A stretch of 64,000 nt of DNA from an uncultured delta proteobacterium (lineage in GTDB: Bacteria > Desulfobacterota > Syntrophorhabdia > Syntrophorhabdales > WCHB1-27). The notes under the pieces are model-generated. The model had not been told where the DNA came from, searched no databases, and worked only from the letters and a program-made list of their open reading frames with translations. Position numbers and translations under genes: made by a program. The stretch spans positions 64,001 to 128,000 of the forward strand of contig CAWEPK010000017.1 of the NCBI GenBank assembly GCA_963810935.1, read 5' to 3'. Shown here in pieces: positions 21,217 to 61,524 of the stretch; the stretch's first letter is position 1; each line of letters opens with the position of its first letter.

Positions 21217-23758
21217 ATGGCCGAAGAAGAAAAGACTACAGACCCCCGCCGCGCGTTCCTGTCTGAAGGCGAACCCGAATTCGACCCACTGATCGAGCTC
21301 GCCCTCGACCTGCGATGGTCGTGGAGCCACACGGCCGACAAGCTGTGGGAGACGATCGAGCCGACGCTCTGGCGGCTTACGCACAACCCGTGGACGGTCC
21401 TGCAAAGCGCATCGCGCGACAGCATCAGGAAGGCGCTCGCGGACCCGGACGTGCGTTCCCTCGTAGACGACGTCCTCGAAGCGCGGCGCGTGGCCGCCGG
21501 CAGCCCCGGCTGGTTCCAGAAGAACCACCCGGACGCGAAGCTTTCGTGCGTCGCCTATTTCTGCATGGAATACATGCTGAGCGAGGCGCTGCCCATTTAC
21601 TCGGGCGGCCTGGGAAATGTGGCAGGCGACCAGCTCAAGGCTGCGAGCGACCTGGGCGTGCCCGTAGTGGCCGTCGGCCTGCTTTTCCAGCAGGGGTATT
21701 TCCGGCAGGCCATTGACAGGAACGGCTGCCAGCGCGCCCTATTCCCTTACAACGACCCCGGCCAGCTCCCGATACGCCCCCTGCACGACCCGAACGGCGA
21801 GCTGTTGCGCCTCCAGGTGCCCCTTGCGGGCTACTCCCTCTGGCTGCGCACGTGGGAGGTCCGCGTAGGAAACGCGAGCCTCTACCTCATCGACAGCAAC
21901 GACTCCGCAAACCTCCCCGCACACAGGGGCATCACGAGCGAGCTTTACGGAGAGGGCCAGGAGCTGCGGCTGACACAGGAGATACTGCTCGGCCTCGCGG
22001 GATGGCGTCTCCTTGCGGCGTTAGGGCTCAAACCCGAGGTCTGCCACATGAATGAGGGCCATACGGCCTTAGTCGTGCTTGCCCGCGCGCTGGGCCTCAT
22101 GCAAGAGACGGGGCAGCCGTTTCACACGGCCCTGGCTGCGACGAGGGCCGGAAACATCTTCACGACCCACACCCCGGTGGCAGCCGGGTTCGACCGTTTC
22201 GAGCCCGCCCTCATCGAGCAGTACCTGGGCGCATACGCCAAAGAGAAACTGGGCATCTCGGTCGACGAGCTTCTGGCCCTCGGCCGCGTACATCCGCGCA
22301 ACGAATCGGAGCCCTTCAACATGGCCTGCCTTGCCGTGCGGGGGAGCGGCCACGTCAACGGCGTCAGCCGCCTGCACGGCCAGGTCAGCAGGGAGATCTT
22401 CCGGCCCCTCTTCCCGCACTGGCCGACGCGCGAGATCCCCGTGGGCCATGTGACGAACGGGGTGCACATGCCTACCTGGGAATCGGCCGAGTCCGACAAG
22501 GTCTGGACGGAGGCGTGCGCGCGCAACCGCTGGCAGGGCACCCTGGAAACGATGGAGGACGACCTGCGCGACGTGCCCGACTCTAAGCTCTGGGCGTTCC
22601 GGGGCACAGGGCGCAGAATGCTGATCGACTATGTGAGGGACCACACGTGGCGCCACAAGGCAGCACTCGGCGCCCCTTCGTGGGAGATCGAGGCAGCGAA
22701 GGGCGTCTTTGACCCCGATACGCTGACCATCGGCTTCGCGCGGCGCTTCGCCACCTACAAGCGCACCACCCTGCTGCTCCATGACCCCGAAAGGCTGCTC
22801 CGCATATTGACGTCGGCGGACCGGCCCGTGCAGCTCGTAGTAGCGGGCAAGGCGCACCCGGCAGACGTTCCGGGGCAGGCGATGATCGAGGAATGGACGG
22901 CCTTTATCGCCCGGCGCGCCGGGGGCGCACGCGGTCTTCCTGGAAGACCACGACATGCTGATGACCCAGCGCCTGGTGCAGGGCGTCGACGTCTGGATAA
23001 ACACGCCGCGCAGGCCGTGGGAGGCGTGCGGCACGAGCGGCATGAAGGTGCTCGTCAACGGGGGTCTCAACCTTTCGGAGCTGGACGGCTGGTGGGCCGA
23101 GGCCTACGGTCCTGAGGTGGGCTGGGCACTGGGCGATAAGAAGGAGCATGGCGAAGACCCCGCCTGGGACGCCGCCGAGGCGCAAAGCCTCTATACCCTC
23201 CTGGAAGAAGAGGTCATACCCGACTTTTACAACAGGGACGCGGAAGGGATGCCGAGGGCATGGGTGGCCCGCATGAGGGAGAGCATGGCAAGGCTCACCC
23301 CGCGCTTCTCATCCAATCGCGCGGTGCGGGAGTACACGGAAGACTATTACCTCCCTGCCGCCGACAGCTACAGGGAGAGGGTAGCGGACGGGTGCTCCCT
23401 TGCGGACCGCATCGTAAGCTGGCAGGAGATGATAGAGCGGATGTGGCCCGCCGTGCGGTTCGGCAAGATAAAGGTCGAGACGTCAGGCGCAGTTTATCGC
23501 TTCACCGTGCGCGTCTACCCGGGCAGCCTGGACCTCGCCTCCATCGGCGTGCAGCTTTACGCGGAAGGGACAGAAGGCGAAGGTCCTTTCCTGCGAGATA
23601 TGGCGCAGGAAAAGGAGAAGGCCGGCCCGGACGGTTATGTCTATAAGTGCGAGGCGCCCGCCAACCGGCCCGCGTCAGACTATACACCCAGGATAATCCC
23701 CCGGTTCCCCGGCGCGTCCGTCCCCCTGGAGGCCGGCAATATCCTCTGGCAGAGATGA
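21217..23758 (+). CDS. glgP: Alpha-glucan (glycogen) phosphorylase (frameshift near 22915)
   Basis: YSGGLGNVAGD, HMNEGH, TTHTP, GFARRFATYKR, AGKAHP; EACGTSGMK in the second frame. Confidence 0.9.
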
Positions 23759-23921
23759 CGGGCGCCTCTAACTTGGAGTAAATAAGGTGCAACCCGTCCT
23801 TTTCCAACTTTCCGCAGAAAATTGCAGGTCTACCCCTTGTCAAGCGCCTTTAGCGTGTCCTAGATTGATTTGTGGGCATTGGACGTCGCCACAGCAGTCA
23901 AATTACATCAGGAGGTTCCAC

Positions 23922-24287
23922 ATGAAACGTTGTTTGATGGCAGCGGTGTTGTTCTCTTTCGTCTTGATGTTTGCTGGGCAGGCGTTTGCACAGGGGGAGG
24001 CCAGCCCGGCCGAGTGGGACAAGCAAGCCTTCATGAACCAGTTGGCGTCCGCGAAGGTGGTGAAGTTCAGCGGCACGGTGCTGAGCCATGACGTAGCGTG
24101 CCACTGCATAGTGGTAAATACGCCCAGGGGCGAGATTACCCTTCAGGACGACTACGCCAAGTTCATGCAGGAATACGACAAGGCGAAGGGTCTCAAGATA
24201 GGGTCCAACGTAGTGGGCACCTTTAAGACGGTGAACCACATCCACTACGCCACGACCGTCGCCTACGCGCCGAAGAAGGAGATGTAG
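23922..24287 (+). CDS. Hypothetical secreted protein
   Basis: AGGAGG RBS; signal peptide ending AFA; terminator downstream. Confidence 0.7.
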   Translation: MKRCLMAAVLFSFVLMFAGQAFAQGEASPAEWDKQAFMNQLASAKVVKFSGTVLSHDVACHCIVVNTPRGEITLQDDYAKFMQEYDKAKGLKIGSNVVGTFKTVNHIHYATTVAYAPKKEM

Positions 24288-24311
24288 CAGACGCGCGCTG
24301 GCGGTTTGCGA

Positions 24312-24350
24312 TTGAGGGAAGGGGGCGCAATTCCCCCTTTCTCAACTTTT
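24312..24350 (+). terminator. Intrinsic terminator
   Basis: TTGAGggAAGGGGG...CCCCCTTtCTCAA followed by CTTTT. Confidence 0.55.
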
Positions 24351-24683
24351 GGGGTTCAGCACCCCCTCGCTGGGCAAAGCCCGGCGAGCCTCCCCGCTCG
24401 GCGCGGCGCATTCGCTTGCTTTATGACCGCCGGACCGCGGCGGCCATTATTGGGGTTCAGCACCCCCTCGCTGGGCAAAGCCCGGCGAGCCTCCCCGCTC
24501 GGCGCGGCGCATTCGCTTGCTTTATGACCGCCGGACCGCGGCGGCCATTATTGGGGTTCAGCACCCCCTCGCCGCGACCCTTCCCTCCTTACGTCGGGCG
24601 GGTGCCCCGGCTCGGCGAGCCTCCCCGCTCGGCGCGGCGCATTCGCTTGCTTTAATACCCTGCTGCTTGCAGCAGGGTATTAA
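24349..24683 (+). repeat. Tandem array of structured repeat family A (3 units, 101-bp period) ending in a 15-bp perfect inverted repeat
   Basis: GGGGTTCAGCACCCCCTC starts at 24351, 24452 and 24553. Units 1 and 2 are identical; unit 3 differs in the central hairpin. TTAATACCCTGCTGC-TT-GCAGCAGGGTATTAA at 24652-24683. Confidence 0.95.
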
Positions 24684-24703
24684 TTCGGAAAGACATAGAA
24701 GGG

Positions 24704-25384
24704 TTAAGGCTCCTGCGACGAGGGATGCCGCGCGCTTATGCGTCTTGTCTGGCCCAGGCCCGCCTCGGTATGTAACCCTGTGCCGCAGTAGAAAGCGAAA
24801 TCGATAAGGGCGTTCAAGAGGCCGATCTCCCTCTCTGTGCGCCCTTTTTCGATCTCCAACGTCACCCAGCCCTGCGCTCCCGCACCGTATGGGGTGGCCG
24901 CACAGGAGACCCTGAAGTCGGAAACGCGCACCAGGGCCGCCGCGTCTGAGGCAGGCGCCGGGAGATCGACTTCCGAAAACTTGCTCCATACCTGCCCGTA
25001 GCGCTCGAAAACCGCCGGGATGACGGGAAAGGGCAGGCGGGCGCCCATAACCTGGACGATCACCGGGGTTGCGTACTGGACGGTGATTACCCTGCGCGAC
25101 CTGTCGGCGTCGGTGAGGATCTCGCTATAGGAAGCCCGCTTTACCTCCCGGTCGGCTGAAGACGCAAGGACCAGGCTCTTTTTTCCCGCCATATCCGCAA
25201 GTAGGGGCATCAGCACGCCCGGCGCAAGCTCGGTCGCCCGGAAGCGGACGCTGCCTGCGGCCTGCCTCTGGGCGAAGGAAAGGGTGTACGGTTTTATCTC
25301 CCGGTCTTCGAACCTTTCCCTGAGAAGGGCGGCGAGGCCGGTGAAGTGTTCGTCACTCGTGTATGCTATGGCGGAAAGGGGCAT
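24704..25384 (-). CDS. cas6: Stand-alone Cas6-like RAMP endoribonuclease
   Basis: KPYTLS in the N-terminal RRM, ITVQYATPV..PFPVIPAVF, and C-terminal G-loop FAFYCGTGLHTEAGLGQ (GxGxxxxxGxG). ATG at 25384 overlaps the nrdG 3' end. Confidence 0.75.
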   Translation of the reverse strand: MPLSAIAYTSDEHFTGLAALLRERFEDREIKPYTLSFAQRQAAGSVRFRATELAPGVLMPLLADMAGKKSLVLASSADREVKRASYSEILTDADRSRRVITVQYATPVIVQVMGARLPFPVIPAVFERYGQVWSKFSEVDLPAPASDAAALVRVSDFRVSCAATPYGAGAQGWVTLEIEKGRTEREIGLLNALIDFAFYCGTGLHTEAGLGQTRRISARHPSSQEP

Positions 25385-26105
25385 TCTGGATGATACCGGC
25401 GACTTTTTCCCTGATTGCGCGCATTTTTTCAGGCGGGTAAGGACTAACGCTCTCGTATTTCTCGTTGAGCGTCTCCCTGGGGACAAAATCCTGCAGGAAG
25501 AACCTGCGGGCGGGCCCGATCTCAACGGCAGCCTGCAAGGCGTCCTGCTCCCTGTGAAGGAAGGGCACCAGCGTCATGCGGAACTCGTAGTCTACACGCC
25601 CCTCGACGATGAAATCGATGCTCTGTCTGATCTTCGCCTTGTCTACACTGCACCCGCACCACCTGTCGTATGATGCGATGGGCCCCTTGATATCCATGGC
25701 GATATAATCGACCAGGCCCGCGCCGACGAGCGATTTTACCACGTCCGGCCGCGACCCGTTCGTGTCGAGCTTTACCTGCACCCCGCGCCCTTTAAGCATT
25801 TCGAGCACATTCGGCAGGCCCTTGTGCATTGTCGGCTCTCCGCCGGTGACGACGACCCGGTCGATCCATTTGTGGAATTTTTGCAGCCTGCCGACGATAT
25901 GCTCGAAGGGCACGTCCTGCAGCGATTCGGGGCGCAGCACCAGTTCCCTGTTATGGCAGAAAGGGCACCTGAAATTGCACCCGCCCGAAAATAGAACAGA
26001 GGCAAGGTGCGACTTCCAGTCGATAAAGCTCGTCTCGATGAAGCCCTTTACCGGGAAATCAGGCAGAGTGCACGGCAATGAGTACTTCTTCAACCTTGGG
26101 GACAT
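25353..26105 (-). CDS. nrdG: Anaerobic ribonucleoside-triphosphate reductase activating enzyme (radical SAM)
   Basis: GCNFRCPFCHN, VVTGGEPT, KLDTNGS, DYIAMDIK; start uncertain. Confidence 0.92.
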   Translation of the reverse strand: MSPRLKKYSLPCTLPDFPVKGFIETSFIDWKSHLASVLFSGGCNFRCPFCHNRELVLRPESLQDVPFEHIVGRLQKFHKWIDRVVVTGGEPTMHKGLPNVLEMLKGRGVQVKLDTNGSRPDVVKSLVGAGLVDYIAMDIKGPIASYDRWCGCSVDKAKIRQSIDFIVEGRVDYEFRMTLVPFLHREQDALQAAVEIGPARRFFLQDFVPRETLNEKYESVSPYPPEKMRAIREKVAGIIQNAPFRHSIHE

Positions 26106-26322
26106 CGCCCCTCCATTCTCCCAAGCCGTTTTCCAGCGCATCCTCCACCACTACGGTGGGCAGGGACATAACGCTGTAAAAGCTTGCCTCCGCAAGACCG
26201 TCCGCAGTCCCCACGTTGTAGGTAAGCACGTTGACTTTTTCTTCCAGCAACCGGCTGCCCAACTCTTTAGCCATAGGGCACTTAGGACAGTCGTCCTTAT
26301 AAAAAATCTTTACCACTCCCAT
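26059..26322 (-). CDS. Thioredoxin/NrdH-like redoxin
   Basis: 87 aa, KIFYKDDCPKCP (CxxC), VMSLPTVVV cis-Pro motif; lies between nrdD and nrdG. Confidence 0.8.
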   Translation of the reverse strand: MGVVKIFYKDDCPKCPMAKELGSRLLEEKVNVLTYNVGTADGLAEASFYSVMSLPTVVVEDALENGLGEWRGDVPKVEEVLIAVHSA

Positions 26323-26416
26323 GTTTCCCTCACTCGGGGTTTTTCCACCTGAGGCCAGTTGATGTGCCATATGTAAATTGTACTATTACGAACCTTGCCG
26401 TTGCTGACCACCCGCC

Positions 26417-26620
26417 GTTGCAGCAATTGGCCCCCGGCCCAATTGCTGCCGTGGTCGGAAGAGCGCCTGGAGAAATCGTGATAGGCGGATGCAATGTGAA
26501 GTGCGTCGGCCGGAGGCGTACGCATGTACGTCGGAGGGCACGCGCTGAACAGGGCGCCGCATAGCGCGATTCCTTCAGGCGCGAGTCCAAACCTTGCCAC
26601 AACATCCGCCTTTGTCTCTA
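26417..26620 (+). repeat. Dispersed repeat family B, uninterrupted copy
   Basis: Aligns with 40468-40566 plus 42078-42261 (GTTGCAGCAATTGGCCCCCGGCCCAATTGCTGCCGTGGTCGGA...GAGTCCAAACCTTGCCACAACATCCGCCTTTG). Confidence 0.9.
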
Positions 26621-26648
26621 ACACTCCCACCGGGCGCATTTATGGTTA

Positions 26649-28736
26649 CTATACCGCTTCTTTCTTCTCTTCATTCACCGAGAAGAACTCCCTATTGCGG
26701 TAGCGGTCGCGCAGCTCGCCCAGCTTGCCCTTGTTCCAGCTCGAGACTTTCGTAAAATAACCGGTGATCCTGGTGATGCCGTCGATATCACTCGAGTGGC
26801 AGTGGGGGCACGCATCCGCCAGCCCGCGTGACGTCCGGCTGCAGGAGTTGCAGATGGTGAACTCCGGCGAAAACGCGATCTGGTCGTTCAGGGTGTACCT
26901 GAAGGTCTTCGTGACGAAGTCCGCTATGGCGCCCTTCGACGGCATAGACTCGCCCATCCACACGTGAGAAATCGAGCCCGCCTCGATCAAAGGATGAAAG
27001 AGGCCCTCGCTCGTCACCCTTTCGATAGGGTTCATCGGTACAGAGACGTTCAGGTGCGTCGAGTTCGTATAGTAGACCTCGCCGCTCGACACGTCGCCCT
27101 TTACAACCTTGCCCGAAACCGGCGAGAAGTAATGGAGGTCGAGCTTCGCAAACCGGTAGCTGGTGCTTTCCGCAGGGGTCTGCTCCAGGACCAGCCTCAT
27201 CTTGTCCCGCTCTCTGACCCTGTCTGCCTGGAGCTTCAGGTGGGCCATGATCTTCAGGCCCATCTTAAGCGCATTCTTCGACTGGTGCATCTCCTCGCCC
27301 GTGTGTACCTGGACCATCTCGTTGAGGCCCACCATGCCGACAAGGTGCGATGCCCGGTTCATCCTCAGATACGGCATGCCGTCGCGGTTCATCGTCAGAA
27401 GCGACAGCGGGCCGTCCTCTCCGGCGGAAAGGAGCTTCTCTATGAAATTCCGCTTCTCTTTGTGCGCCTTCACGGCCAGCATGAACTGGTCCGTGATGAG
27501 CCCTAGGAGCGTAGTGTCGTCCCCCTTCGCCTTGTAGGCAAGGCGCGGCAGGTTGAGGGAAACGTTCTGGAGTGCGCAATAGCGCATGCGCCACGGCTCT
27601 TTTGCGTCCAAAAGGTCGAACTCGTCCAGCTTGAAGCTCAGGCGGCAGCACTCCGATATTTTGGCCGTCTCTCCCCTGTCGAAGACGAAGTACGTATTCC
27701 CCTTGTCCGACGCGACGTCCGATATGTGGTCCAGGAAGTCCTTGTGCCCTTCCGTCTTGAAGAATTTCTCGGTGATATGGACAAGCGGCTTCGGGAAGAA
27801 AAACGGGCGCCCGGCGCCGTCGCCTTCCTTGAAGACCTCGAAGAGCTTCCAGACGAACCGCTGCGCCTCTTTCTCGTATTGACCGTACGTCTTACCGGTA
27901 AAGGCCCCCGAAGGCCCGATAGCGGGGACGTCCACGAAATGCTTCGGAATCTCCCAATACAGGTTGACGTCGGTGAAGATCGCCTGCCCTCCCCTCGCCA
28001 CCGCCTGCTGTGAAAACTCGAAGATCAGCATCTGGGCAAGCTGCTTCACGTCGTTGTCGCTCATCCCTTCGAGGTACGGCGCAAAGAAGATGTTGATGGC
28101 GTCCCAGCCGATGGCCCCGGCGAAATTGCTCTGGAGGGCGGCCGCAAACTTGACCAGGTGGGCCAGCAGCACCTCGGGGTGCTTGGCCGGCTTCGCCATG
28201 GAGAGCGAATGCGGGAGGTTGAGGCCGAACTTCTTTATATATTCGAGGGACTGGCCGCTGCAATACGGCCTGTCGATAAACCCTAAGTCATGGAGGTGGA
28301 TATCGCCGTTCATATGCGCGTCGGCCACGTCCTGGGAAAAGACGGACAACAGGGCGAACTCCTTCTTTATCCTCTCCGCAAGGGTAAGGTTCGTCGCCTC
28401 CGGCCCGTGCGGCACGTTCGCGTTCTCTTTATTCTGGTGAAGGATCAGGTTGCTTACGTCATAGATAGGCATGCCGAGCCTGGTATGCATCCTCCGGGGC
28501 GATTCCAGCCCCTTCTCGATCAGCCGGGCATTGACCATCTCCCTGATGAGCGGCGCAGTCACGACCTTTATACCCGACTTCATGATCAGCTCTTCAACCC
28601 CTTTGCTGATCGATATTGCCGTATCCTGGTCGATCATCGTCTCCCGCATGAGAGCGTCCACTATCCGCGAGCGGTCCCAGTCCGAGATGGTTTCTTCCGA
28701 CGTGCGGACAAAAAGATTCAGATCGGTTGTCTCCAT
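26649..28736 (-). CDS. nrdD: Class III anaerobic ribonucleoside-triphosphate reductase with N-terminal ATP cone
   Basis: WDRSRIVDAL ATP cone, GDIHLHDL, ECCRL finger loop, QTPAEST, YYTNSTH, CNSC..CPHC zinc site, RITGY glycyl-radical loop. Confidence 0.97.
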   Translation of the reverse strand: METTDLNLFVRTSEETISDWDRSRIVDALMRETMIDQDTAISISKGVEELIMKSGIKVVTAPLIREMVNARLIEKGLESPRRMHTRLGMPIYDVSNLILHQNKENANVPHGPEATNLTLAERIKKEFALLSVFSQDVADAHMNGDIHLHDLGFIDRPYCSGQSLEYIKKFGLNLPHSLSMAKPAKHPEVLLAHLVKFAAALQSNFAGAIGWDAINIFFAPYLEGMSDNDVKQLAQMLIFEFSQQAVARGGQAIFTDVNLYWEIPKHFVDVPAIGPSGAFTGKTYGQYEKEAQRFVWKLFEVFKEGDGAGRPFFFPKPLVHITEKFFKTEGHKDFLDHISDVASDKGNTYFVFDRGETAKISECCRLSFKLDEFDLLDAKEPWRMRYCALQNVSLNLPRLAYKAKGDDTTLLGLITDQFMLAVKAHKEKRNFIEKLLSAGEDGPLSLLTMNRDGMPYLRMNRASHLVGMVGLNEMVQVHTGEEMHQSKNALKMGLKIMAHLKLQADRVRERDKMRLVLEQTPAESTSYRFAKLDLHYFSPVSGKVVKGDVSSGEVYYTNSTHLNVSVPMNPIERVTSEGLFHPLIEAGSISHVWMGESMPSKGAIADFVTKTFRYTLNDQIAFSPEFTICNSCSRTSRGLADACPHCHSSDIDGITRITGYFTKVSSWNKGKLGELRDRYRNREFFSVNEEKKEAV

Positions 28737-28787
28737 GATCCTCCTTATAATTTTCAGCTTACTATGAATAACGGCAAATAACTGGAA

Positions 28788-28834
28788 TGACTATATATTG
28801 TGATGAGGGATGTATTTAGTACTATATGTTGTGC
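28788..28834 (-). promoter_or_regulatory. Tandem NrdR boxes upstream of nrdD
   Basis: TGACTATATATTGTGA (28788-28803) and GTACTATATGTTGTGC (28819-28834), 31 bp apart, resembling the acaCwAtATaTwGtgt consensus. Confidence 0.8.
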
Positions 28835-28980
28835 CATCACCGCTATGATATCATTCTTCGGTGAGTCTTTGTCAAGAATTTTCTAAAGTTTTTTTAAATC
28901 TTTTTAAAAACTGCGCAACGGAAAGCAAAAGATGGAGGTTTTGGATGGAATTTTCATCAAGGTCACCGGCTCGACCTCTT

Positions 28981-29009
28981 CCGTCATACCGGCGGAAGCC
29001 GGTATCCAG
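28981..29009 (+). repeat. REP-like palindrome, family C
   Basis: CCGTCATACCGGCGGAAGCCGGTATCCAG; 28/29 identical to the reverse complement of 40404-40432. Confidence 0.85.
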
Positions 29010-29027: not shown

Positions 29028-29996
29028 CTATCCTTCGCCCTTCATTATGGCCGCCGCCTCTTCCGGCACTACGGGGACCGTATAAAACTCGTCTTCCCGC
29101 TTGTACTGTGAGTATGTCCTCGGGAGTATCTCGACATGCCAGTGGAAATAGTCGTCCACCTGCGGGCCCCGCTCGCCGAACCGGCCGGCGGCCGTGTTCG
29201 GGGACGTATGGATCACCACGGAATAGGCATCCCTGACCTTTTCGACGCGCCTCATGACGTTGAGGTAGACCTCGGCGAACTCCCGCCTCAGGTCTTCCCT
29301 TTCCCACGATTCGAAGGCGGGGCTGTGCTGTCTGGGGATGATCCACACTTCGAAGGCCATGCGCGAAGCGAAGGGGCAGATGGCTAAAAAATGGCTGCTC
29401 GCTACCACCACGCGCCTGTCCTGTCTCTCCTCCTGACTGACCACGTCGCACAGGAGGCACCTTTCCTTCTGCAGGTAATGGTTCCTTGAATTCTCCAGCT
29501 CCATGAACAACTGATGGGGGACGATCGGCGTCGCAAGCACGTGCGAATGGGGGTGCACGATGTAAGAGCCCGTTATCTCCCCGTGGTTCTTGTAAACATG
29601 GACGTACTTGAAACGTTTGTCTTTTTTCAGGTCGAGGATGCGCTCGGTGTACATCTCGACGACGCGGAACAGCTCGCCTGCATCGAACGTCGCAAAGGTC
29701 TTTACGTGGGGCCTGCCCTCGACGATGATCTCGTGGGCGCCGAGGGTCCCCATCTTGTCATAGAACCCTTCGGCCCTTTTATTTTCGCTCGCTTCTATTT
29801 GAAAGACGGGGTTTGCGGCGGGAAAAGCGCGAACGAGCCAGGCGCCCTGCCCGTCCCTTATCTCCCTGATGGACGGAGGGGTCAGGTGCTCGTTGCCGGG
29901 GCAGAACGGGCAAACGTCGATCTCCTGCGCTTTGACTTTCCTAACGCCGACTACGACCCAGTTGCCCGTCAGAGCGTCCCTTCTAAACTCGCCCAC
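29028..29996 (-). CDS. GalT-like nucleotidylyltransferase (HIT superfamily)
   Basis: EFRRDALTGNWV, CPFCPGNE, GAHEIIVE, KNHG, HPHSH, CLLCD, FHWHVEILPR, PEEAA. Confidence 0.85.
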   Translation of the reverse strand: MGEFRRDALTGNWVVVGVRKVKAQEIDVCPFCPGNEHLTPPSIREIRDGQGAWLVRAFPAANPVFQIEASENKRAEGFYDKMGTLGAHEIIVEGRPHVKTFATFDAGELFRVVEMYTERILDLKKDKRFKYVHVYKNHGEITGSYIVHPHSHVLATPIVPHQLFMELENSRNHYLQKERCLLCDVVSQEERQDRRVVVASSHFLAICPFASRMAFEVWIIPRQHSPAFESWEREDLRREFAEVYLNVMRRVEKVRDAYSVVIHTSPNTAAGRFGERGPQVDDYFHWHVEILPRTYSQYKREDEFYTVPVVPEEAAAIMKGEG

Positions 29997-30044
29997 AGAT
30001 AAGGATAACCCTTTCCCTTACGGGTTGTCAAAAGAACGGATACG

Positions 30045-32705
<2,661 letters not shown>

Positions 32706-51921: not shown

Positions 51922-52030
51922 GCCGCCCGGCACTACGCCGGGCGGGCAATTATTGGGGTTCAGCACCCCCTCCAGCGGCATCAGCCGCATGGAGCCTCCC
52001 CGCTCGGCGCGGCGCTTCGCTTGCTTTATT
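51922..52030 (+). repeat. Single unit of structured repeat family A
   Basis: Linker hairpin, then TTATTGGGGTTCAGCACCCCCTC...GAGCCTCCCCGCTCGGCGCGGCGC-TTCGCTTGCTTTA. Confidence 0.9.
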
Positions 52031-61217: not shown

Positions 61218-61524
61218 AATTACCCTGCTCAAAAAGCAGGATAATAAAGCAAGCGAATGCGCCGCGCTGAGCAGGGAGGCTCCATGAGCTTTGCTCGTGG
61301 AGGGGGCGCTGAGCCCCAATGATGATTGCCGCGCCAGCGGCAATAAAACGGAGCGCAGCGAAGTGCCGAGGGGGGAGGACTCCACGGACTTCGTTCGTGG
61401 AGGGGGCGCTGAGCCCCAATGATGATTGCCACGCCAGCGGCAATAAAACGGAGCGCAGCGAAGTGCCGAGGGGGGAGGACTCCACGGACTTCGTTCGTGG
61501 AGGGGGCGCTGAGCCCCAATGATT
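61218..61524 (-). repeat. Tandem array of structured repeat family A (3 units, 100-bp period), reverse orientation
   Basis: AGGGGGCGCTGAGCCCCAATGAT starts at 61301, 61401 and 61501; AAAGCAAGCGAATGCGCCGCGC matches the reverse complement of the 24.4-kb units. Confidence 0.92.

Follow-up and report, generated by a model that had tools for sequence, protein, structure and literature searches.

The 64,000-nucleotide stretch of DNA analysed here (the window), from an uncultured delta proteobacterium of the order Syntrophorhabdales, carries on its minus strand a row of four genes: nrdD, a thioredoxin-like gene, nrdG, and a cas6-like gene that closes this anaerobic ribonucleotide reductase (RNR) operon. 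Cas6 is known as the maker of CRISPR RNAs. The evolutionary result of our analysis is clear: the protein at the end of the operon is a Cas6 that left CRISPR, and its gene has kept this place throughout a bacterial family under purifying selection, both in genomes that encode CRISPR-Cas and in genomes that do not. A domesticated Cas6 had been proposed here from the DNA letters alone (hereafter the sequence-only reading), and the claim of domestication is now supported beyond the evidence available to that reading. The features of the locus are given below by position in the window, with the open reading frames (ORFs), the models, and the searches on which they rest.

24349..24651, minus strand: tandem array of 101-bp units ('family A' of the sequence-only reading); 2.2 copies at 100% match in Tandem Repeats Finder, with units at 24349-24572

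24652..24683, no strand assigned: palindrome with a 15-bp stem, a dispersed repeat module, starting 20 nt past the stop codon of the cas6-like gene

24704..25384 including the stop codon, minus strand: cas6-like gene, last of the operon, 226 aa; translation, PF10040, AlphaFold2 (AF2) model, Foldseek and VIA searches, 47-sequence alignment A1

25353..26141, minus strand: nrdG, class III RNR activase, longest ORF; TIGR02495 172 bits, Radical_SAM

26059..26370, minus strand: thioredoxin-like redoxin, longest ORF; PF13192 31 bits; its 3' end overlaps the nrdG start

26371..26648, minus strand: nrdD-redoxin spacer with dispersed repeat modules ('family B' of the sequence-only reading); 25 BLAST matches elsewhere in the genome

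26649..28736, minus strand: nrdD, anaerobic ribonucleoside-triphosphate reductase with ATP-cone; PF13597 473 bits, TIGR02487 413 bits

28788-28803 and 28819-28834, minus strand: two NrdR-box-like palindromes, centres 31 nt apart, downstream of a conserved TTGACA (within 28867-28878)

This layout bears out what had been described at the 3' end of the operon, namely a 226-aa protein with the C-terminal glycine-rich loop of Cas6 (G-loop), a start that overlaps nrdG by 32 bp, and repeats beginning about 20 bp past the stop: the translation of the ORF at 24704-25384 contains FAFYCGTGLHTEAGLGQ, nrdG ends at 25353 with its stop codon included, and the palindrome, 20 nt past the cas6-like stop codon, is followed by the 101-bp units. 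The start codon is supported by the invariance of M1-P2 among the 47 aligned homologues.

A number of results identify the protein as a Cas6. First, the Pfam model PF10040 (CRISPR_Cas6) matches residues 103-213 with 36.6 bits, against a cut-off of 25. The NCBIfam model TIGR01877 gives 22.8 bits against a cut-off of 58.65, and in the Pfam and NCBIfam profile searches no model of the Cas6 N-terminal domain matches the N-terminal half of the protein, whereas such models do match its relatives from Chloroflexota (L037, L039). Second, the AF2 model, built on the 47-sequence alignment, has a mean pLDDT of 80.5, with low confidence in G-loop residues 202-211, and its residues 1-217 align by VIA with Thermus thermophilus Cas6A (4c8y) over both domains (Z 16.6, rmsd 3.5, 206 residues). 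T. thermophilus Cas6B follows at Z 14.5-15.5; after the Thermus proteins come the Cas6 of S. thermophilus, a type IV Cas6, and the Cas6 of Sulfolobus, and the top 17 VIA entries are Cas6 in every case. Third, Foldseek returns 33 matches at E<=1e-3 (best E 2e-11), almost all of them Cas6, with TM values of 0.65-0.73. Fourth, the profile of the alignment matches Cas6A among PDB sequences at E 4.8e-8. The model and both structure searches indicate two tandem ferredoxin-like/RRM domains, and the check by profile and structure that the sequence-only reading had proposed comes out for Cas6, with PF10040 over its cut-off and a Cas6/RAMP fold. By its predicted fold, the protein is a genuine Cas6. It belongs to the family by structure, but lacks CRISPR association and the catalytic His, and stays below one of two curated thresholds.

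The gene is an orphan with respect to CRISPR-Cas, and it is present with or without CRISPR in the genome. The window contains no other cas gene and no spacer array, as already noted from the letters, and Tandem Repeats Finder reports two 100-bp tandem arrays only. This absence extends to the whole source assembly, a metagenome-assembled genome (MAG) of 21 contigs and 4.06 Mb (93.5% complete, 7% contamination), in which we found no Cas1, no RAMP-family match, and no cas3_core over cut-off, and in which the single PF10040 match is the cas6-like gene itself. When the assembly was scanned with k-mers for repeats at regular spacing, the only matches were 100-bp tandem repeats and a repeat-protein gene, and no CRISPR-like array was seen. 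The same kind of scan is able to detect such arrays, since it found them next to 43 of 59 distant Cas6 loci; arrays left unassembled in the MAG are possible. None of the 15 loci of related cas6-like genes has a CRISPR array.

The comparison was extended to 22 genomes of the same Syntrophorhabdales family (six genera, g1 to g6) and to 19 genomes from three other families of the order (sister families). In the family, Cas1 occurs in 10 of the 22 genomes (as fragments only in two of these), cas3_core over cut-off in seven, and type III RAMPs in three. Ten of the 20 carriers of the cas6-like gene lack Cas1, RAMP, or cas3 over cut-off, among them the source genome and all of genus g3, whose six genomes (73-98% complete) all have the cas6-like gene and none of which has Cas1, RAMP, or cas3_core. 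Two of the genomes with type III RAMPs, G009 and G017, encode longer, canonical Cas6 proteins in addition (two and one, respectively), and the canonical job is therefore filled separately there. We observed no genomic association of the cas6-like gene with a CRISPR array or with cas genes.

Its association with the nrd genes is tight. The alignment profile matches 20 of the 22 family genomes, in five of the six genera, and none of the 19 sister-family genomes. nrdG lies directly upstream in all 19 relatives' loci and in all 15 GTDB loci (read with up to 6 kb of flank, and from genomes that overlap partly with those of the 19); the complete four-gene order is found in 13 of the latter, the other two being cut by contig ends. 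The synteny that the sequence-only reading had proposed to check in relatives lacking CRISPR is thus kept, also in the six g3 genomes. The two family genomes without the gene (G006 and G011, 84% and 87% complete) have no NrdG match at E<=1e-20 either, so that the cas6-like gene is present wherever nrdG was found (20/20 genomes). Membership of the nrd operon is conserved within this one family only: nrdG is present at 56-57% identity in the three sister-family genomes checked, and in the two sister-family loci read no cas6-like gene follows it.

Where did the gene come from? A profile search against 1.84 billion representatives returned 1349 proteins at E<=1e-3 and only 11 at E<=1e-30, with scores dropping from ~259 to ~125 bits after these 11 top matches. 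The weaker matches are 260-290 aa long and are matched mainly over their C-terminal two thirds, and the N-terminal domain of the cas6-like protein is therefore shorter by ~45-50 residues. In a pattern search, the nearest outside relatives are Cas6 proteins of Chloroflexota and Poribacteria. The 59 distant Cas6 loci have CRISPR arrays in 43 cases and nrd genes in none, and one of them (L037) is a full type III-A locus. In a maximum-likelihood tree of 13 clade members and nine outgroups picked from the profile matches, the nrd-linked proteins group together as a single clade (100/99) whose stem measures 1.63 substitutions per site, and their branching, g3 versus (g1, g2), is that of the NrdD tree. 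The dN/dS of the gene is 0.13-0.30 (eight pairs), compared with 0.10-0.22 for nrdG, and 0.13-0.15 within g3. These trees and rates are best fitted by a single ancient capture, followed by fast divergence and then by vertical inheritance under constraint.

The position of the gene also bears on its expression. In all relatives' loci the cas6-like start lies 29-32 nt inside nrdG, which argues that the gene is probably co-transcribed and translationally coupled with nrdG. For the two genes listed above as longest ORFs, relatives suggest shorter forms: the true nrdG start would be the ATG at 26105 (there are in-frame stops upstream of the equivalent ATG), and the redoxin start common to relatives is probably M17 at 26322 (tblastn matches begin at residues 4-31). 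Upstream of nrdD, a TTGACA and two NrdR-type palindromes are common to 14 aligned loci. The NrdR box pattern CACWAYATATWGTR matches the two palindromes and nothing else in the window, against 0.03 matches expected by chance, and an nrdR gene lies elsewhere in the genome (L107, 196.7 bits). The promoter of the operon carries two boxes of the NrdR type, and the cas6-like gene is thus probably expressed within an NrdR-controlled operon. A strict sigma-70 scan of 24200-29000 gave no promoter-like sites, though TTGACA is aligned in all 14 loci, and Rfam had no match in the window. The contigs of one metatranscriptome run over 24200-28800 leave the body of the cas6-like gene and most of the operon uncovered, and are uninformative either way.

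The residues kept by the protein give some indication of what it might do. In the alignment of 47 sequences, each 39-71% identical to the query, 28 columns are invariant. The G-loop pattern GhGxxxxxGhG is present as GTGLHTEAGLG at residues 201-211, with G201, G203, G209, and G211 invariant. Conservation is densest over D195-F-A-F-Y-x-G-T-G-x-H-T-D/E-E-G-x-G-Q-T-R-R215, the G-rich loop and its flanks (DFAFYxGTGxHTDEGxGQTRR) being the best conserved part of the protein; also invariant or nearly so are Y8, K31-P-Y-T-x-S36, R47, R49, T51-E-L, D78, W133, and G172-W, with K31, R47, and R49 among the invariant. H205 of the G-loop occurs in 42 of the 47 sequences, and no His is invariant anywhere in the alignment. 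Passages of PMC3902920 give His23, His42, and Tyr256 as catalytic residues of TtCas6B and Arg22 and His37 as those of TtCas6A, and have the G-loop of Thermus Cas6 adjoin the scissile phosphate. The His of KLHEAPRKPF in chain 4c98, taken as His42 on the assumption of a four-residue numbering offset, is matched to column 26, where 18 of the 47 sequences have E, 12 have A, and 10 have G; in the profile alignment to 4c98, Tyr256 falls on the acidic positions 207/208. The alpha1-beta2 loop showed no catalytic His with Tyr/Lys partners. Among other candidate residues, Y8 and K31 are conserved. Some Cas6 enzymes do without the His of this loop. Judging from these residues, classical Cas6 catalysis is unlikely, RNA binding in an altered form is plausible, and the active site may have moved to H205 with D/E. 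The name given by the sequence-only reading, that of an 'orphan Cas6-like nuclease', is right as to orphan and as to Cas6 fold; 'nuclease' is uncertain, the catalytic His42 and Tyr256 positions being variable or acidic.

These observations give strong support to a history in several steps. The ancestor of the Syntrophorhabdales family acquired a Cas6 gene, in a single event, at the 3' end of its nrdD-redoxin-nrdG operon; the nearest present-day relatives of the captured gene are found in type III-A and other CRISPR loci. Capture was followed by quick divergence, as indicated by the long stem branch, the shorter N-terminal domain, and the catalytic His and Tyr that are no longer conserved, and thereafter by vertical inheritance with the operon under purifying selection, CRISPR-Cas being present or not. 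Because the gene is the permanent last gene of the operon with or without CRISPR, its protein probably has a new job. Because the G-rich loop and its flanks are the most conserved part and K31, R47, and R49 are invariant, we infer that this job still involves RNA: the protein would be produced along with the anaerobic reductase and would bind hairpins in a structure-specific way, and its cleavage activity might be weak, relocated, or absent. We favour this reading, of a Cas6 that left CRISPR, was captured in the nrd operon, and still acts on RNA, and would give it about an even chance of being right. A more specific version, in which an NrdR-controlled, NrdG-coupled domesticated Cas6 serves anaerobic dNTP synthesis as a dedicated factor at the post-transcriptional level, binds or cuts a specific hairpin RNA, and either sets reductase expression or couples RNA processing to nucleotide supply, seems doubtful; the hairpin for such regulation might be part of the nrd transcript or belong to the REP-like elements found within the operon in several genera.

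A number of arguments weigh against a protein that still acts on RNA from within this operon. First, positions 207 and 208 of the G-loop are near-invariant D/E, which could disfavour RNA contact. Second, the pI of the family is near neutral (median 6.3, range 5.25-8.88), whereas typical Cas6 proteins are basic. Third, conservation is lacking at the positions that correspond to His42 and Tyr256 of TtCas6B and to Arg129 of TtCas6A. Fourth, when the noncoding parts of the operon (upstream of nrdD, the nrdD-redoxin spacer, and downstream of the cas6-like gene) were compared for an RNA element by alignments and k-mers, the three genera had nothing in common except the promoter, its NrdR-type boxes, and the ribosome-binding site. 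Fifth, 2 of 20 genomes, G001 (L014/L030) and G007 (L021), have the gene split in two; since nrdG or nrdD is also frame-broken in two other assemblies (L032 and L033), these breaks are possibly assembly errors and not pseudogenes. Finally, the family genomes are all MAGs of one family and thus not independent.

The alternative that survives best is that the Cas6 fold was reused as a protein accessory of the class III RNR, e.g., as a partner of NrdG or NrdD, and that RNA binding was lost. Much of what has been said could be read in this way: the 29-32-nt overlap suggests coupled, roughly equimolar synthesis with NrdG, co-occurrence with nrdG is strict (20/20 family genomes with nrdG), the pI is neutral and the G-loop acidic, the residues that Thermus Cas6 uses for catalysis and for reading bases have been lost, and the length of the stem branch points to a changed function. 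Yet, conservation is highest in the region with which Cas6 binds RNA, i.e., the G-loop with the flanking Arg-Arg, and sister families run the same operon without the cas6-like gene, which is hence not needed for RNR chemistry. We consider a role as protein partner unlikely.

The sequence-only reading had proposed another target, the hairpin repeats of its families A and B beside and inside the operon. The cas6-like protein would then bind or cleave REP-like repeats (core GGGGGYGCUGARCCCC, then AAUAAU), including those in and after its own operon, in a CRISPR-independent processing of repeat RNA. The repeats are indeed REP-like, being dispersed, intergenic, hairpin-forming, and present in many copies. 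Read on the operon strand, the array next to the gene has core hairpins GGGGGTGCTGAACCCC at 24351-24366, 24452-24467, and 24553-24568, and repeats of this family lie in the window at 24349-24651, 51954-51969 (approximately), and 61274-61523. By BLAST, the family A unit has 76 matches in the genome, the palindrome 44, and the operon spacer 25. The hallmark of the repeats, the hairpin GGGGGYGCTGARCCCC followed by AATAAT, has 82 exact copies, and a loose search for the core hairpin finds 88 copies in 76 places among ~2300 intergenic regions, these being derived from our own crude gene calls, outside which 82 of the 88 copies lie. The palindrome at 24652-24683 is terminator-like for the plus strand only.

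Several of these properties would suit a Cas6 substrate. A 5-bp G/C stem and a loop of 5 nt make up the core, whose general shape is like that of the short stem-loop targets of TtCas6A and TtCas6B described in passages of PMC3902920. The closing pair is C-G in 43 of the 88 copies, T-A in 26, T-G in six, and C-A in about three, i.e., it shows compensatory C-G/T-A variation. The motif is restricted to the gene-bearing family, with 15/22 genomes there (from genera g1, g2, g5, and g6) and 0/19 in the sister families. The nrdD-redoxin spacer, whose length in relatives ranges over 29-558 nt, contains sense copies in 5 of 14 loci, which belong to genera g1 and g2 and do not include this window; three sense copies lie downstream of the cas6-like gene in the window, and in tandem intergenic regions genome-wide 30 copies are sense and 12 antisense. 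Apart from these properties, part of the family A array is present in an RNA library, in which one contig is identical to the window up to 24408, starting before 24200, and has 283 further letters before 24200 that would reach the start of the convergent plus-strand gene (23919-24287), and a second contig covers 24480-24639 with one mismatch; as this library is one run available as contigs, the strand is undeterminable and DNA carry-over is possible.

The distribution of the motif across genera argues the other way. In g3, all six genomes have the gene, with a dN/dS of 0.13-0.15, and none has a copy of the motif; nor is any other repeat, REP-like or not, visible in the five g3 loci of 8-13 kb each. 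The single g4 genome also lacks the motif (0/1). That the gene is just as strongly constrained in g3, where the motif was not found, argues against the repeats as an essential substrate. G011 shows the reverse, with 36 motif copies and no match to the cas6-like gene (it has no nrdG match either, and is 87% complete). Within the source genome, repeats occur in 76 of ~2300 intergenic regions in every arrangement, convergent and, in 14 cases, divergent ones included. Downstream of the cas6-like gene no sequence is conserved among relatives: the family A array is found only in the source genome and its closest relative, and downstream adjacency is confined to genus g1. The family-level co-occurrence of gene and motif is confounded by common ancestry. 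The sequence-only reading had itself cautioned that the adjacency could be chance, as the repeats also occur elsewhere. Its functional link between the protein and families A and B is not supported, and its domesticated Cas6 co-expressed with the nrd operon is. Hairpin repeats are a weakly supported substrate at best, and we regard their binding or cleavage by the protein as improbable.

An IS200-like Y1 transposase element is found in five copies in the genome, 97-100% identical over ~654 bp, on contigs C3, C5, C7, C8, and C12 (L096-L100). Two of the five have the core hairpin on both sides in the same orientation, as if the element inserted into repeat arrays. A Y1/RAYT transposase was considered as keeper of the repeats and seems unlikely, as the distribution of Y1 does not match that of the repeats in the 41 genomes.

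It is very improbable that the protein is an ordinary Cas6 processing crRNAs from arrays elsewhere in trans, its adjacency to nrdG being incidental. Relatives are annotated as 'precrRNA processing endoribonuclease Cas6', Cas1 is present in 10/22 family genomes, and passages of the 2025 classification (PMC12669027) state that most type III systems appear to use Cas6 supplied in trans. But 10/20 carriers have no cas markers, including the six g3 genomes and the source genome (where there is no array either), type III genomes have their own canonical Cas6, and a fixed operon position and an NrdD-congruent tree fit poorly with mobile defence genes. That the gene is a decaying relic or a selfish hitch-hiker without present function, as its two interrupted copies out of 20 and its faster evolution than its neighbours (44-95% identity versus 85-98% for NrdD) might suggest, is hardly credible in the face of a dN/dS of 0.13-0.30, 28 invariant columns among such diverse sequences, and retention in five genera.

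The surroundings of the operon offer a few further observations. Directly upstream of it, at 29031-32249 on the minus strand, lie a GalT/HIT-like gene and a catalase-peroxidase (with its peroxidase domain in two stretches), an oxygen-defence enzyme that here adjoins the genes of an oxygen-sensitive reductase. On the other side, convergent with the cas6-like gene, a small protein without Pfam match is encoded at 23919-24287 on the plus strand (122 aa from the start used), and it is found in the same position in genera g1 and g2 at 55-93% identity. One of the RNA-library contigs spans the 3' end of its gene and continues into the repeat array. Beyond it, an alpha-glucan phosphorylase (DUF3417 and Phosphorylase, 21217-23758, plus strand) is split into two overlapping ORFs, 21217-23115 and 22955-23758, by either a frameshift or an assembly error. 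In one relative (L024, 1-2731), the nrd operon is immediately preceded by two direct copies of a 1358-bp segment, 15 bp apart.

Our analysis reveals a single Cas6 gene held in a core metabolic operon across a bacterial family. In the titles and passages returned by full-text searches of the literature, no report links Cas6 to the anaerobic RNR operon or describes such a solitary Cas6. To our knowledge, Cas parts put to other uses have until now been reported from defence-like or mobile settings, and a solitary Cas6 with a housekeeping role outside any CRISPR system would be the first case. If RNA binding has been retained, this would be a natural case of a CRISPR protein turned cellular RNA regulator, and a compact hairpin binder with a new specificity; if instead the protein binds NrdG, it would be a RAMP fold turned to protein recognition. 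There is also a consequence for database practice. Public databases name the relatives crRNA-processing Cas6 or hypothetical proteins, and annotation as pre-crRNA processing endoribonucleases is probably wrong as to function.

Among known systems, the cas6-like protein is closest in structure to Cas6A (TTHA0078) and Cas6B (TTHB231) of T. thermophilus (PDB 4c8y, 4c97, 4c98, 4c9d), with which it shares the tandem ferredoxin/RRM architecture (Z 14.5-16.6 over 200-206 residues), a C-terminal domain and G-rich loop that align by sequence (E 4.8e-8), and a small size (226-268 aa). The Thermus proteins are CRISPR-linked enzymes, whereas the cas6-like gene has no CRISPR context and lies in an nrd operon; its G-loop reads H-T-D/E-E where theirs reads K-T-x-x, and its catalytic positions are variable or acidic. 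The Cas6 proteins of type III-A (Csm) systems in Chloroflexota MAGs (e.g., L037 and L039), which count among its nearest relatives by sequence outside the clade, are 33-34% identical to it over residues 85-219 and match PF10040. They differ by their length (268-283 aa), by an N-terminal domain PF19308 (in L037 and L039), and by their neighbours, which are Cas10, Csm2, a RAMP, Csm6, and Cas1 in L037 and Csm6 and Cas1 in L039.

The repeats next to the gene resemble REP/BIME palindromes, as they are short, G/C-rich, intergenic hairpins in 76 places, partly in tandem and sometimes inside operons. Unlike these, they come in modular units of ~100 bp and have no single-copy RAYT-type transposase that tracks them.

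Two further cases concern Cas proteins that depart from crRNA maturation or from complete CRISPR-Cas systems. One Cas6 homologue reportedly binds repeat RNA without cleaving it, and is said to be encoded in an archaeon that bears CRISPR. This non-catalytic protein (PDB 3qjj, 'One RAMP protein binding different RNA substrates') shares the Cas6 fold with ours at Z 7.4, structurally much farther than the Thermus enzymes, and a non-catalytic Cas6 is mentioned in passages of PMC3902920. The other is the cas5-6-7-8 module of Streptomyces with a STAND NTPase, in which, according to passages of PMC8730458, Cas parts were kept without adaptation module or array and exapted. That module comprises several genes in a defence-like or mobile context, whereas the Syntrophorhabdales family has kept a single Cas6 gene in a housekeeping operon of nucleotide metabolism.

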